The notes under the pieces are model-generated. The model made no database searches, was not told where the DNA came from, and was given only the letters and a program-made list of their open reading frames with translations. A stretch of 64,000 bases of DNA from a virus: positions 31,849 through 95,848 of IMG/VR virus record IMGVR_UViG_3300032308_001684; one strand, given 5' to 3'. Below are positions 5,806 through 32,300 of this stretch, in pieces (positions within the stretch are counted from its first letter, which is position 1; every line of letters begins with the position of its first letter). The position numbers were made by a program, and so were the translations under genes.

Positions 5806-7119
5806 TTAAAAGTAAAGTTGTATCAAGTTGTAAACCACGGATTGCATACTGGCTCCTAAAACAAATACAAACACCATGGGCATGACGTCTTTGTTACGCA
5901 GAGCAAATCCCACAATCAAGCTCACAATTAGGGTTGATAGATACAGCAGTAGTTTCTGTGAGGACCATGCTTCCACACCCAAACTTAAAACTATCACAGC
6001 TATCAACATCCATATAAATCTCTTATCCAAGAGTTTTTGTGCCACGGTTCGACCCAGGGTAGCCAAGGGCCAAGACAGTGTCAGTCCCACAGCACAAGCT
6101 GCCATGAACCATGACGCTAGTATAACATAATTATTGATCAAGAACGACCCCAGTGTAAAAATTGCACCAGAATCAATCATGAGATCATAGATAATGGCTT
6201 CGCTGGCAATGATAGGAATACCAAACAACAACAGTGGAATCAGCACACTCATGGATCCGGCATTGCTGGCTGTTTCACTAGCCACAACAGCGGCTAGATT
6301 GGGGTTTTGTTTGCTGGGACGGTGTTTCTGCAACCATTTTTCAGATGTGTATGCGGCACTGCTACCCATGATGTAACTCATTCCAGGCACCAGGCCTAGA
6401 ACGTAACCTATCACAGAACCTCTGATCATTGGGCCGACATACTGTTTGTGATGATCCACAGTGCGTATTTCATTGTTGGATGGTTTGATTTCTAAGTTTC
6501 TCAACAGTTGAGGTATGACATAGATGCCGATTAGAAATGGCAACAAGGGTAGGCCACTGTACAAGTCTGCCCATCCGCCGGTAAAGTAAATTTTTTGAGT
6601 GTAGTAGTTATAGCCCACAGCACTGAGCGCAAATCCTGTCAGCATAAATGCAGTGTTTTCCCACCAGCGATTGGCGCCTGACAGTGCAATACAGATCACT
6701 GTGACAGTGTAAAAAACTATCTGCCAACGGCTGGCAAAGATTTCTGGAAACGACAACAACCAGCTGACAATAAAATAACTGGCACCCAGCGCAATCACAC
6801 TGCCCAACATTCTGCCCAGAGCAGTGAGTTGGATGGCATGTTGGGTAAGACCGGCCTGTGCTAGATTACTGCTTTCCTTGCTGGCCGGTATGGCGCTGAC
6901 TTCGCCCGGTACCCCAAAATACAAACTGGGGATGATGTCAACAAAGTTTGATATGGTAATATAAGCCACATAGAAGATCATGAGATGCAGTGGGTTCCAT
7001 CCCACCATCCATGTGTACAAGATGGCCAATAGATGTGCAGGCCCCAGCCCAGGCACAATGCCAGTGGCCACTCCAGCCAGACAACCGGCAACAAATATAG
7101 ATATAGTAATCAGATCCAT
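5806..7119 (-). CDS. tctA: tripartite tricarboxylate transporter permease TctA-like
   Basis: Polytopic; GIVPGLG, GVPGE, GLVPGM, ETASNA, LLFGIP motifs. Confidence 0.85.
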   Translation of the reverse strand: MDLITISIFVAGCLAGVATGIVPGLGPAHLLAILYTWMVGWNPLHLMIFYVAYITISNFVDIIPSLYFGVPGEVSAIPASKESSNLAQAGLTQHAIQLTALGRMLGSVIALGASYFIVSWLLSFPEIFASRWQIVFYTVTVICIALSGANRWWENTAFMLTGFALSAVGYNYYTQKIYFTGGWADLYSGLPLLPFLIGIYVIPQLLRNLEIKPSNNEIRTVDHHKQYVGPMIRGSVIGYVLGLVPGMSYIMGSSAAYTSEKWLQKHRPSKQNPNLAAVVASETASNAGSMSVLIPLLLFGIPIIASEAIIYDLMIDSGAIFTLGSFLINNYVILASWFMAACAVGLTLSWPLATLGRTVAQKLLDKRFIWMLIAVIVLSLGVEAWSSQKLLLYLSTLIVSLIVGFALRNKDVMPMVFVFVLGASMQSVVYNLIQLYF

Positions 7120-7180
7120 AAAACTTATATATAGGAACAGGTGCACAAGGCACCTGTTTTTGTCATTCTAAAAATTCAAA

Positions 7181-8329
7181 TTAGAATGTGTGTGTGATAC
7201 CTACACCATACGCTGTTTGCTTGCCACCTGCATTTACTACAGATTGATACTGGCTGGAGCTCAAACTATTAACGTTTGCACCACCACCACCGTAGGCAGC
7301 AAATCCAGCTGTACCGTTGTTGTCTTGCTGAGAAACAAGAGCGTAAATTTTGGTACGCTTGCTCAAGTCCTTTTCAACGCCAGTGCTCCACATCTTGCTT
7401 TGGTTGGCAGTTGTGACTTTATCGTTGAACTGATAGTGACCCAAGAACACAGCGGTATCAGATGTTACTTGATAACGAGTGCTGAGCTGTTTGAGATCAA
7501 ACTCGGAATTGGCCTGTCCTGAGATTGAAGGATTTTCAATCTGTGTGTAACCACCGCGCACGATCCAACGATCAGTGATACGATAGCCGCCGCCCAGGAA
7601 CTGATACTGGCCAGTTTTTACACCTGTGGCGCTCTTGACTTCGTAGTAACCTGCTGTGGCAATATACGGGCCTTTATCATACAAAGCACCAATGCCAATG
7701 CGCTGACCGTAGTCCATGTCGCCGGCTGTGTTACCAAAACCATACATGGTACGCACAGTGAGACCGTTCCAGTTGGGTGATTGCCAAGAAGCAATGTTAG
7801 AACCATATGTTCCACCGGTCATTGCGCTGACACCAGTTTTGGCAGTGGCAGTGCCGTTGAAGGTAGAACCATCGGCAAAGTACACCAATGAGCTACCAAA
7901 TCCCATGCCACCACGAACGTCCTGCGCATTGAAATATTGATAGATTGGCATGACCTGACGACCCAGGCGCAGTGTACCTAGATCTTTGTTGGCCAAAAAC
8001 ACATTGGATTCACGAGCAAATACACCATTGGCAGCGCCTGTACCAGAGCTGACACCTTGTGTACCATCAGCTGGATTGATTTGGCTTTCAAGCAAGAAAC
8101 CTGCTGAGTTGCCGCCACCAAGATCTTCTGTGCCACGGAATCCTAAGAAACTGGTAGAAATAGGTGAGCTGGTGATGTGTGTAAGACTTTGCTTGTTTGT
8201 TCCCACGTTGTTGGCATTGATGACTCCTAAATCAAGTCGACCAAATACTTGAACATTGGATGATTGTGCTAGGGCAGAGCCTGCAACGGCCGTTGCCATG
8301 GCACCTGCGATAACGAGTTTTTTAAACAT
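7181..8329 (-). CDS. Gram-negative (betaproteobacterial-type) porin
   Basis: Signal peptide, GFRGTEDLGGG, LSKRT, C-terminal GITHTF. Confidence 0.9.
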   Translation of the reverse strand: MFKKLVIAGAMATAVAGSALAQSSNVQVFGRLDLGVINANNVGTNKQSLTHITSSPISTSFLGFRGTEDLGGGNSAGFLLESQINPADGTQGVSSGTGAANGVFARESNVFLANKDLGTLRLGRQVMPIYQYFNAQDVRGGMGFGSSLVYFADGSTFNGTATAKTGVSAMTGGTYGSNIASWQSPNWNGLTVRTMYGFGNTAGDMDYGQRIGIGALYDKGPYIATAGYYEVKSATGVKTGQYQFLGGGYRITDRWIVRGGYTQIENPSISGQANSEFDLKQLSTRYQVTSDTAVFLGHYQFNDKVTTANQSKMWSTGVEKDLSKRTKIYALVSQQDNNGTAGFAAYGGGGANVNSLSSSQYQSVVNAGGKQTAYGVGITHTF

Positions 8330-13342: not shown

Positions 13343-14242
13343 ATGCACAAACTTTTTATAGCTACCTATTCTGGAGATCTTGCCCAGTTTGAACTGTGTT
13401 GCCATTGCATTAACAAAAACTGGAAAGGCAATCGATTCATCACAATATCCTGGGGACAACCAAATCCCTTGCAACAGGGTCAGATTTTTAATATAGAATC
13501 ACTCACTAGTCTGGTAACAGACATTTTTGACAGCGACTGGCAGATAGAAATAGTAGATGGCGCTGTGCCAGGAATGTCAGGCTACTGTGAACAACAGGTC
13601 AACAAAGTTAGATTTTCTATTGATCCTAGGTTTCAAGATACCATAGTGTTTGACTGTAAAGATTTTTTACTCAAACCTACGGGCATTGATTTTTTCAAAC
13701 CCAACGGTGTTTATCGTGTGGCATATTTTAAAAATGGCAACACATTTAAAGAACAATACATATCTGCATTGGACATCATTGATCAGGTACCCAACAATGT
13801 TCCTACACCTTTTAACACTACTCCTTGGATATGGGCCGGCGGAGAGCTTGAAAAGTTTTGGTCTTACATGCAATCAAGATTTGGCCCATATCAATCCTGG
13901 AGAACTTTTCCTGGTGCAACAGAATGGTCAAACTTTTATATCTTCAACTACTGCGACCCAGAGTCAATGATGCCCATGACTAGTGCCGAATACGAGTTTG
14001 TTAACTTTTGTGGTGTATGGCAAACTCTCAGCCTTGAAGATATACAGCAACAAATCGTTGATTTTGATGTCTGGGATTCTATGCGCATATGGAAACATAC
14101 CAGAAAAGATTCTACTCTCCAAAAGGTCGAGCTCACAGAGCAGGTACTTAAAAAATATGGAATAGAACAATCAGTGATTGATCAATGGAAACAACAACAT
14201 CTTGCTGAAATCTTGCAGTCTGATTATTCTAAAGAATTTTGA
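13343..14242 (+). CDS. hypothetical protein, possibly glycosyltransferase-like
   Basis: 299 aa reverse-oriented ORF; QQVNK...VFDCKDFLLKP; TAAATA just upstream. Confidence 0.6.
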   Translation: MHKLFIATYSGDLAQFELCCHCINKNWKGNRFITISWGQPNPLQQGQIFNIESLTSLVTDIFDSDWQIEIVDGAVPGMSGYCEQQVNKVRFSIDPRFQDTIVFDCKDFLLKPTGIDFFKPNGVYRVAYFKNGNTFKEQYISALDIIDQVPNNVPTPFNTTPWIWAGGELEKFWSYMQSRFGPYQSWRTFPGATEWSNFYIFNYCDPESMMPMTSAEYEFVNFCGVWQTLSLEDIQQQIVDFDVWDSMRIWKHTRKDSTLQKVELTEQVLKKYGIEQSVIDQWKQQHLAEILQSDYSKEF

Positions 14243-14578
14243 CCGGGTATTCTGTTACGAGGAACCCGGCAAACCCTAGGTTACCTTAGATCAGGCAGCC
14301 AATGCGTAAACTTCATCGTTTGCGTTTACTTTGATTTGCTTCTACGACCAGGTTACCCCAATCCTACGGGTTCTGCTTTCCCGTGTTGCCGTCTTTTCTA
14401 GCTCGCCATGTCGAAACCGGTCGAGCCCATCATAAAAAGACATGTATGCAAACAAACGCAATCAACAGTATGACTACTATAGTGTACGATGTGTTAACCA
14501 TATATCTCCTTATGGTGGACCCGGGGAGAATCGAACTCCCGTCCACAGCGCCTTCAAATTGAAGGATATACAACAATT
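14243..14578 (-). ncRNA. ssrA: circularly permuted (two-piece) tmRNA
   Basis: Acceptor piece ending GGGTCCACCA (14513) precedes the coding piece starting GGGCTCGAC (14428); G3-U70 pair; tag ANDEVYALAA* at 14291-14323. Confidence 0.9.
14430..14501 (-). CDS. 23-aa hydrophobic micropeptide in the tmRNA intervening segment
   Basis: TAAGGAG RBS, MVNTSYTIVVILLIAFVCIHVFL*. Confidence 0.5.
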   Translation of the reverse strand: MVNTSYTIVVILLIAFVCIHVFL

Positions 14579-14703
14579 CTTTCACGAGACTATCAGGACT
14601 TGAAGGCCCTCGCGTGGCCTAGGGACTCACACCCTATCAACATTCCAGCAGATAAATCAGCGCCACTGGGTGTATACTCCTGCTAGTTGTTTACTTATCA
14701 TCA

Positions 14704-14989: not shown

Positions 14990-15181
14990 TTACTTTTTAG
15001 GAGCGTCGGCTTTTTTGTCGTCTTTCTTAGCGTCGCTTTTGGTAGCGTCAGCGGCCTTCTTTTCAGCAGGCTTAGCAGGTGCTGCCGCGGCTGGCTTGGC
15101 TTCTTCTTTCTTGGCAGCAGGTGCCTGTGCGAAAGCGGATACAGCGAACAATGATGCGATTAGTGTAGCTACGAGTTTCAT
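14990..15181 (-). CDS. small secreted Ala/Lys/Pro-rich protein
   Basis: Signal peptide ending SAFA; AAGGAG RBS. Confidence 0.75.
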   Translation of the reverse strand: MKLVATLIASLFAVSAFAQAPAAKKEEAKPAAAAPAKPAEKKAADATKSDAKKDDKKADAPKK

Positions 15182-17803: not shown

Positions 17804-17895
17804 TGGTACCCCCAGCGGGAGTCGAACCCACATGAACCAATTATCTGTTGCTTACGGGATATAAATCCGCCGTTTTACCATTAAACTATAGGGGC
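17804..17895 (-). tRNA. atypical tRNA-Ile(TAT) with long variable region
   Basis: Acceptor, D and T arms normal; TAT anticodon; about 22-nt variable region. Confidence 0.7.
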
Positions 17896-31629: not shown

Positions 31630-32300
31630 TACCAAGATCCTGGCCAAGCACAATAGCGATTGATTGCTGTATAAGCAGAACACATCTTTTTGGCCATGTC
31701 ACTCTTGTGACGTCGACTCCAATAGCGATCAGCAATCTTGACAAGATCTTCTAGATCTTCTCTAGAGCCAGACCATTTGATATTGGCCACAGCAAGAGGT
31801 CGTCCGCGCCAGGCCGCAAAGCCATGATCCCAAATGCGCTGTATAATATCCTGACGATTGGTCAGTCTGGTGCCAGTGGCCAAGTCATAGATGCCGTGTG
31901 TTTTGCGTGTGGCAAAAGCACGACGCCAAGTTCTAAAACTGTGACAAAAACTCTGCCCAGAGTCTTGTACAGCAAAATCTAGATTTTTAGATTCCAACCA
32001 TTCTTGATATTGTTGAGTCCACTCCGTGGGCAAAAGGTCTTGTTCTATACCATTGGTGTCATCATTGGCTAGGTATTGGATTTTGTTTGCATGCAGAACA
32101 AGATGAGTAGCACTGTGCTTCTTGCCCAAGCTCAGCAAGAAATCCAAATTGTTGGCCGCATCTTCGTCGGCCTTGGGCCCAATGGTAAACATCAACAAGG
32201 CATCGCTGTCCTTGGTATGTTGTCCAGCGCCCCAGCGATAGCCTCGACGAAGGCGTTCTCCGGCATCACACACGGCATAGATATTTTCGTAGGCCAACAT
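31629..32300 (-). CDS. hypothetical phage protein
   Basis: 223 aa, TAATG coupling at both ends. Confidence 0.7.
   Translation of the reverse strand: MLAYENIYAVCDAGERLRRGYRWGAGQHTKDSDALLMFTIGPKADEDAANNLDFLLSLGKKHSATHLVLHANKIQYLANDDTNGIEQDLLPTEWTQQYQEWLESKNLDFAVQDSGQSFCHSFRTWRRAFATRKTHGIYDLATGTRLTNRQDIIQRIWDHGFAAWRGRPLAVANIKWSGSREDLEDLVKIADRYWSRRHKSDMAKKMCSAYTAINRYCAWPGSW

Follow-up and report, generated by a model that had tools for sequence, protein, structure and literature searches.

Permuted, two-piece tmRNA genes are found in Alpha- and Betaproteobacteria, in cyanobacteria and in aquatic phages (PMC11915505; PMC9004378), and the two-piece tmRNAs known from phages are common in, and mostly come from, aquatic phages (PMC9004378). 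For the intervening sequences of such genes, a tmRNA database paper from 2025 reports a tRNA-Ala gene or a repeat element and no protein-coding ORF (PMC11915505). Our full-text literature searches turned up no account of a tmRNA spacer that contains a protein gene. The nearest analogue of the locus described here is the intervening sequence (IVS) of bacterial 23S rRNA, an ORF-bearing, stem-closed segment that is excised from the precursor of a stable RNA; its S23p ORF is present in Coxiella and Leptospira (PMC4990558). [quoted passage not shown] Here we analysed a phage tmRNA gene whose spacer, as comparison with its relatives suggests, very probably contains a genuine gene of 23 codons whose product is a small hydrophobic, predicted membrane peptide.

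The window that we analysed is a stretch of 64,000 nt (positions 31,849 to 95,848) of the 95.8-kb IMG/VR virus record IMGVR_UViG_3300032308_001684, which represents an uncultured freshwater phage and is 28% complete according to CheckV. ARAGORN located 28 tRNA genes and one tmRNA gene on the minus strand of the window. The tmRNA gene (14221..14617, minus strand) matches the betaproteobacterial Rfam model RF01850 over this entire range with 121.6 bits (gathering score 84) and RF04321 at 14291-14575 with 115.6 bits (gathering score 47); its order is acceptor piece, spacer, coding piece. ARAGORN likewise reported a permuted tmRNA at 14200-14605, with the 3′ domain ahead of the 5′ domain and the tag ANDEVYALAA*. 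Rfam and ARAGORN place the acceptor piece, the 3′ half of the tRNA-like domain with the T arm, CGGGUCC and ACCA, at 14513..14575 (minus strand); its 3′ end reads GGGTCCACCA, and the final A is position 14513. The coding piece (14291..14428, minus strand) starts with G1 at 14428 and the 5′ acceptor strand GGGCUCG, and it contains the tag reading frame ANDEVYALAA, followed by a stop, at 14323-14291. GGGCUCG pairs with CGGGUCC so that G3 stands opposite U, and the G3:U70 wobble, the alanine identity pair, is present.

Several features in the vicinity of this gene were recorded. A 299-aa ORF without known family (13343-14242, plus strand) converges on the tmRNA gene and overlaps its predicted 3′ end by ~20-40 nt; it is kept beside the tmRNA in a related contig (L002, 81% identity) and in eight other viral contigs (29-39%). 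Within the tRNA array, between tRNA-Ala and tRNA-Ile, lies a 63-aa ORF (14990-15181, minus strand) with an AAGGAG SD, a signal-peptide-like N-terminus (MKLVATLIASLFAVSAFA) and an Ala/Lys/Pro-rich low-complexity tail, for which the PHROG matches were weak. A tRNA-Ile gene with anticodon TAT (17804-17895, minus strand) is, at 92 nt in the ARAGORN prediction, unusually long for tRNA-Ile. Farther away, a full-length TctA tricarboxylate-transporter subunit (E = 1.5e-56) adjoins a Porin_4 Gram-negative porin (E = 1.2e-38), the two genes lying side by side at 5806-7146 and 7181-8329 on the minus strand. These are unusual auxiliary genes, and they hint at a Gram-negative, possibly betaproteobacterial host.

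The 84 nt that separate the 3′ half of the tRNA-like domain from its 5′ half (14512..14429, minus strand), delimited by the ARAGORN domain boundaries and by the Rfam insert, constitute the spacer, which by analogy with known two-piece tmRNAs would be missing from the mature tmRNA. Read on the minus strand, it consists of the SD-like TAAGGAG (14506..14512), ATAT (14505-14502), an ATG (14501-14499), 22 further codons, TGA (14430..14432) and a single T (14429), after which G1 follows. The preliminary description had reported this layout, that is, an 84-nt spacer that opens with TAAGGAG after the CCA, has an ATG 4 nt on and ends its TGA 1 nt before G1, and every detail was confirmed by the sequence, ARAGORN, Rfam and the ORF list. 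The resulting 23-codon ORF (14433..14501, with its stop 14501..14430, minus strand), which appears in the ORF list and is backed by relatives, encodes MVNTSYTIVVILLIAFVCIHVFL. Six polar residues are followed by 17 uncharged, mostly hydrophobic residues (T7-L23), the mean hydropathy being 2.26; a hydrophobic stretch of ~17 residues is short or borderline for a membrane span. The peptide had no match in Pfam, and the best PHROG match was to an unnamed family with E = 0.02. AAGGAG followed 3-9 nt on by a start codon occurs in 14 minus-strand cases in the window, 11 of which are the starts of ORFs of 46 aa or more. This arrangement is the usual start signal in this phage, and the SD of the spacer conforms to it. 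Two sets of competing frames were discarded: plus-strand ORFs across the tmRNA because they overlap a well-supported RNA gene, and a 51-aa frame from a GTG at 14585 because it crosses the T arm and lacks an SD.

With start and stop fixed, the ORF in the window remains open in 44% of dinucleotide shuffles. Its hydropathy compares with 1.28 +/- 0.38 in open shuffles, of which 0.45% match it. Taken singly the ORF is mildly unlikely, but considered together with its relatives it is far beyond chance. For this comparison about 100 phage two-piece tmRNA genes were fetched. A scan for a T-arm pattern, which is blind to the spacer, followed by ARAGORN, yielded about 65 phage permuted tmRNAs; the majority of their spacers are ORF-less hairpins, and a subset has an SD, an ATG, a hydrophobic ORF and a stop exactly 1 nt before G1. 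Scanning for CCA + TAAGGAG added 17 permuted tmRNAs. In all but one of these (16/17) an ATG or GTG lies 4-7 nt past the SD, and all 11 distinct hydrophobic ORFs of 22-24 codons (from 12 contigs) end 1 nt before G1. The start was in frame with the terminal stop in all 22-25-codon ORFs found, and the tmRNA backbone lineage of the window itself carries such ORFs in about 9-10 of 21 distinct spacers. The chance of an open frame, multiplied over ten representative ORFs, is about 7e-7, a figure that leaves the frame and start requirements uncounted and treats partly non-independent lineages as separate.

All relatives of the spacer come from uncultured viral contigs; blastn of the locus, tblastn of the peptide and blastn of a sister tmRNA retrieved no cultured phage with this spacer. 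In a metagenome scan with an SD-leader pattern, the sole match was unrelated. Viral matches to TCCACCA + SD (L431, L432, L443, L447, L462, L480 and others) were mostly not tmRNAs, and in these loci the SD and ATG seem to stand directly after a CCA-like end, for example with a conserved ORF whose product begins MGKIWSLLND. This suggests that these phages may commonly have genes that begin right at the end of a tRNA-type 3′ terminus.

Pooled over 19 related ORFs, the spacer frames have the composition of coding sequence. T occupies 63% of second codon positions, compared with 23% of first and 35% of third positions, and G occupies 37% of first positions, compared with 8% and 7% elsewhere. The chi-square p-value for this three-base periodicity is about 7e-59, which is an upper bound on significance because the pooled sequences are related. 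Among six sequences of an 89-nt family (MNDDLTPLAIGVVVVLVVFALVLL and relatives), pN/pS was 0.03-0.3 at a pS of 0.6-0.8 and the variable columns were distributed 11/3/18 by codon position, whereas the two alternative frames gave pN/pS near or above 1. An 83-nt family had a pN/pS of 0.18. In the family to which the window belongs, with ten distinct members (L001, which is the window, L202, L242, L246, L081, L245, L440, L441, L454 and L244), the ORFs have 22-25 codons, differ in length by whole codons and share a hydrophobic core without any charged residue. Their C-terminus is (C/L/I)(I/V/L)HVF(L/F), with one exception ending in HVYF, and in one sub-lineage of six contigs TTG replaces the in-frame ATG. 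For this family pN/pS was 0.2-0.6 in well-aligned pairs and near 1 in several distant pairs, and the three closest sequences had 7/4/7 variable sites by codon position. The family is more weakly constrained than the sister families, with a modest selection signal, and what is constrained is less the exact residues than the frame, the start, the stop and the hydrophobic character. The alignment of homologous phage spacers that the preliminary description had proposed therefore came out in its favour, as SD, start, frame, stop and hydrophobicity are all kept. Of its claim of a membrane micropeptide gene, the relatives support a selected hydrophobic coding sequence, and the membrane part is predicted from the hydrophobicity.

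The two ends of the spacer have a second role. Nearly all phage spacers of at least 50 nt, with or without an ORF, begin with (A/G/T)AAG and finish with (T/C)TGAT, and the end motifs of bacterial two-piece tmRNAs are close variants, starting with CAAGG... and ending with GAT or GGT. The Rhodocyclales spacers that we read are 24-49 nt long, have the form CAAGGGCAT...GTGTCCTTGCGAT and contain no ORF. TGAT is a near-complement of ACCA. According to the folds and a count over 54 distinct spacers, U-1 pairs with A73, A-2 faces C74, G-3 pairs with C75 and U-4 pairs with A76, and from there on spacer nucleotide k pairs with nucleotide -(4+k) over about 10-11 positions. In ORF-less spacers, positions 2-10 are paired in 85-100% of cases by many pair types, which amounts to covariation. 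The SD-type spacers follow the same register with mostly G:U instead of G:C at positions 4 and 5, which fits a weaker helix as well as Phe/Leu codons; as a point against the coding reading, the U-rich helix strand alone favours C-terminal Phe and Leu codons.

As observations on the bacterial loci, the acceptor end of the Rhodocyclales genes (L253, L262, L286, L306 and others) is encoded as CCC and not CCA, and their spacers are hairpins of 24-49 nt (CAAGGGCAT...CCTTGCGAT) with the same closing-helix plan as in phages. When the class to which an Azonexus genome belongs was searched for bacterial permuted tmRNAs, two of 151 genomes were above the cut-off; an unpublished genome in that sample is used for none of the claims made here.

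In the window, the SD-bearing 5′ strand UAAGGAGAUAU (14512-14502, minus strand) pairs in the folds with the 3′ strand AUGUCUUUUUA (14433..14443, minus strand), which comprises the codons for His-Val-Phe-Leu and is identified by the MFE and centroid folds and by the register over the 54 spacers. The TGA stop belongs to the conserved TGAT, the pairing partner of ACCA, and the closing helix of ~11-13 bp continues the acceptor stem. For the precursor context the predicted folding energy is -36.6 kcal/mol (z = -5.5). In the excised spacer the SD remains within an 11-bp helix (-19.3 kcal/mol), and a nascent spacer that is short of its final 16 nt is essentially unstructured (z = 0.2). Because both the SD and the AUG lie inside the 11-13 bp helix in the folded precursor as well as in the excised spacer, translation from these forms may be poor. 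What is new here is that the SD and the stop, to judge from these sequence comparisons, are co-opted strands of a covarying closing helix and pair with each other. The preliminary description had listed the SD right after the CCA and the TGA 1 nt before G1 as parts of the micropeptide gene. This needs correction: they are the two strands of the closing helix and not design features of the ORF, and these end motifs recur in ORF-less spacers. The perfect fit of the ORF to the spacer is explained by its having co-opted an existing processing and folding helix.

The same recurrence is what could be said for a spacer without coding function, whose ORF would be a by-product of the purine-rich helix strand, the UGAU leader and overall U-richness: the end motifs occur in ORF-less phage spacers and, as close variants, in bacteria, and almost half of the shuffles stay open. 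We disfavour this explanation as highly improbable, since a start codon stands at SD distance in nearly every TAAGGAG spacer, every ORF of 22-25 codons has its start in the frame of the terminal stop, the three-base periodicity is strong, the product of open-frame chances is very small, and the excess of synonymous change is confined to the real frame.

We consider it likely that the spacer ORF is a dual-use gene, that is, that the two-piece tmRNA precursor also serves as mRNA for a hydrophobic micropeptide of 23 residues, which the removed spacer encodes. As the sequence comparison shows, the 5′ strand of the helix has become a strong SD (UAAGGAG), the 3′ strand encodes the last four residues HVFL, and the UGA within the conserved UGAU leader serves as the stop codon. 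On the dual-use reading, the SD would be free only in nascent RNA, while the ~65 nt ahead of the anti-SD strand are being transcribed, or once the helix has been cut or melted. Because the SD is sequestered in the folds and the nascent spacer is unstructured, initiation is most plausible on nascent RNA or on a cut or melted helix. The template could be the nascent or unprocessed precursor as well as the excised spacer, which the preliminary description had proposed as a mini-mRNA. The kinetic window for translation would probably be short, each transcript being translated only a few times, and after termination the helix could close and block re-initiation. Given the known size of its footprint, a ribosome that has reached the stop would overlie both G1 and the 5′ acceptor strand, so that translation and maturation by RNase P should exclude each other on any one molecule. 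At the other end of the spacer, part of the SD, which directly abuts the CCA, could be lost when the acceptor piece is processed at its 3′ end. The peptide would most likely enter the inner membrane of the host as a single short helix and act during infection. The metatranscriptome runs share only 4-6% of sampled words, and for two of them, examined alongside two DNA runs, the contigs matched only the upstream flank or the tag region and left the spacer uncovered.

A peptide of this kind might also be a type-I-toxin-like or lysis-related membrane poison, with the pairing between the 5′ and 3′ ends of its message acting as a lock until the RNA is processed. Small hydrophobic toxins such as Ibs (about 19 aa), ShoB (26 aa) and TisB (29 aa) resemble it in size and composition, and in hok-type mRNAs the SD is likewise occluded by the distant 3′ end of the message, with which it pairs. 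We nevertheless give this explanation little chance: the peptide has no homology to known toxin families in Pfam or PHROG, and the same helix is present in spacers without an ORF, which indicates that the helix was not built as a lock.

The proposed dual-use gene has to be seen alongside what other phage tmRNA spacers contain. The spacer of the window is 88% identical to that of L202, whereas the acceptor pieces of the two share 71% and the coding pieces 67%. L081 and L021 have acceptor pieces that are 91% shared and peptides of different families, and a DNA contig from another freshwater sample has an acceptor piece identical to that of the window with the spacer replaced by 74 other letters. 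Related tmRNA backbones therefore bear different spacer cassettes.

Further spacers contain unrelated soluble ORFs of 50-100 aa. The 284-nt spacer of L376 encodes an 86-aa Cys-rich protein, and plus-strand ORFs were found at L103:6993-7184 (64 aa), L096:1969-2118 (50 aa) and L162:6881-7183 (101 aa), the products of which belong to no Pfam or PHROG family. Minus-strand ORFs of 55-61 codons at L180:156-338, L191:4654-4818 and L214:6429-6593 have a strong SD, do not share the frame of the terminal TGA and have no stop before G1. They extend 27-81 nt into the tmRNA coding piece, and because they read past G1, cleavage by RNase P would leave them without a stop codon. The L191 protein matched the unnamed family phrog_16066 (E = 1.3e-4); the longer spacer ORFs of related loci gave no family match in seven of eight cases.

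These soluble ORFs bear on the possibility that the frame is a cis-acting regulatory device, in which the act of translation opens the helix, covers the RNase P site and thereby times or gates tmRNA maturation, a role that the preliminary description had named as an alternative and with which a functional peptide would still be compatible. The geometry is suggestive, as SD, AUG and stop lie within or abut a helix that adjoins the acceptor stem and the stop stands 1 nt before the RNase P site, where, given the footprint, a terminating ribosome must cover G1; the many hydrophobic-to-hydrophobic replacements tolerated by the window's family agree with it too. However, the sister families keep their amino acids at saturating synonymous divergence (pN/pS 0.03-0.3), which a cis role would not need, and a uniformly hydrophobic composition has no obvious cis role. 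Over half of the distinct phage spacers and all Rhodocyclales spacers seen mature without an ORF, and the unrelated soluble ORFs in other spacers point to a gene slot rather than a regulatory frame. We thus regard the cis-acting device as unlikely.

More speculatively, and with a joint claim on which we would not insist, the stem-closed spacer could be a general, exchangeable expression slot in aquatic phages. Small genes would be born in it from the SD-like and stop-like strands of the helix or be swapped in; RNA folding and tRNA-type processing would set a brief translation window; about one dose of membrane peptide would be made per precursor, alongside the tmRNA, in host takeover; and stop-less cassettes would become non-stop messages and, as such, substrates of their own tmRNA. 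We put this set of proposals forward as tentative and, taken together, rather doubtful.

Two-piece tmRNA spacers have been regarded as waste RNA, and a gene of 23 codons that is nested in an RNA gene escapes automatic annotation. Should the peptide be produced, precursors of stable RNAs in phages double as messengers, and a new gene can arise from a conserved processing helix that provides both a ribosome-binding site and a stop codon. The peptides would then constitute an unrecognised class of phage membrane micropeptides that is produced in step with the ribosome-rescue RNA. The locus is also a compact natural system for the competition of RNA folding, RNase P processing and translation on one molecule.

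In comparison with the known two-piece tmRNAs, the gene has the same order of acceptor, intervening and coding segments, the G3:U70 pair, the tag ANDEVYALAA and a helix that begins with the AAG after the CCA. It differs in that published accounts treat the intervening sequence as discarded RNA, and the short hairpins that form the Rhodocyclales spacers leave no room for an ORF. With the 23S rRNA IVS the phage spacer shares an SD-like region in or beside the closing stem. The IVS, however, resides in rRNA and is excised by RNase III, and compared with the Coxiella IVS the phage spacer has a strong SD and an ORF family under coding constraint. The spacer in the window is not itself a member of the 23S IVS/S23p group, as its host RNA is tmRNA and its peptide belongs to no Pfam or PHROG family.

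Parallels of a more general kind exist for the individual elements. Delayed long-range pairing restricts translation to nascent RNA in the maturation-protein gene of MS2 and in hok mRNA, and the sequestration of the SD by a distant complementary strand would be the same in the phage spacer, where it is predicted from folding. The likeness to type I toxin-antitoxin systems is limited to peptide size, hydrophobicity and the occluded SD. In the tRNA punctuation of mitochondrial transcripts, coding segments are bounded by tRNA-type processing sites, and the mini-cistron in the spacer is similarly flanked by a CCA end on its 5′ side and an RNase P site on its 3′ side. Here, in contrast, the setting is phage or bacterial, a single mini-cistron is nested in a split tRNA-like domain, and its release in translatable form is a prediction. 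Finally, dual-function RNAs such as SgrS/SgrT, RNAIII/delta-haemolysin and SR1/SR1P combine a non-coding and a small-peptide role in a single transcript, as the tmRNA precursor probably does; in those RNAs the mature molecule performs both jobs, whereas in the phage the coding part would be the very piece that is removed from the functional RNA.
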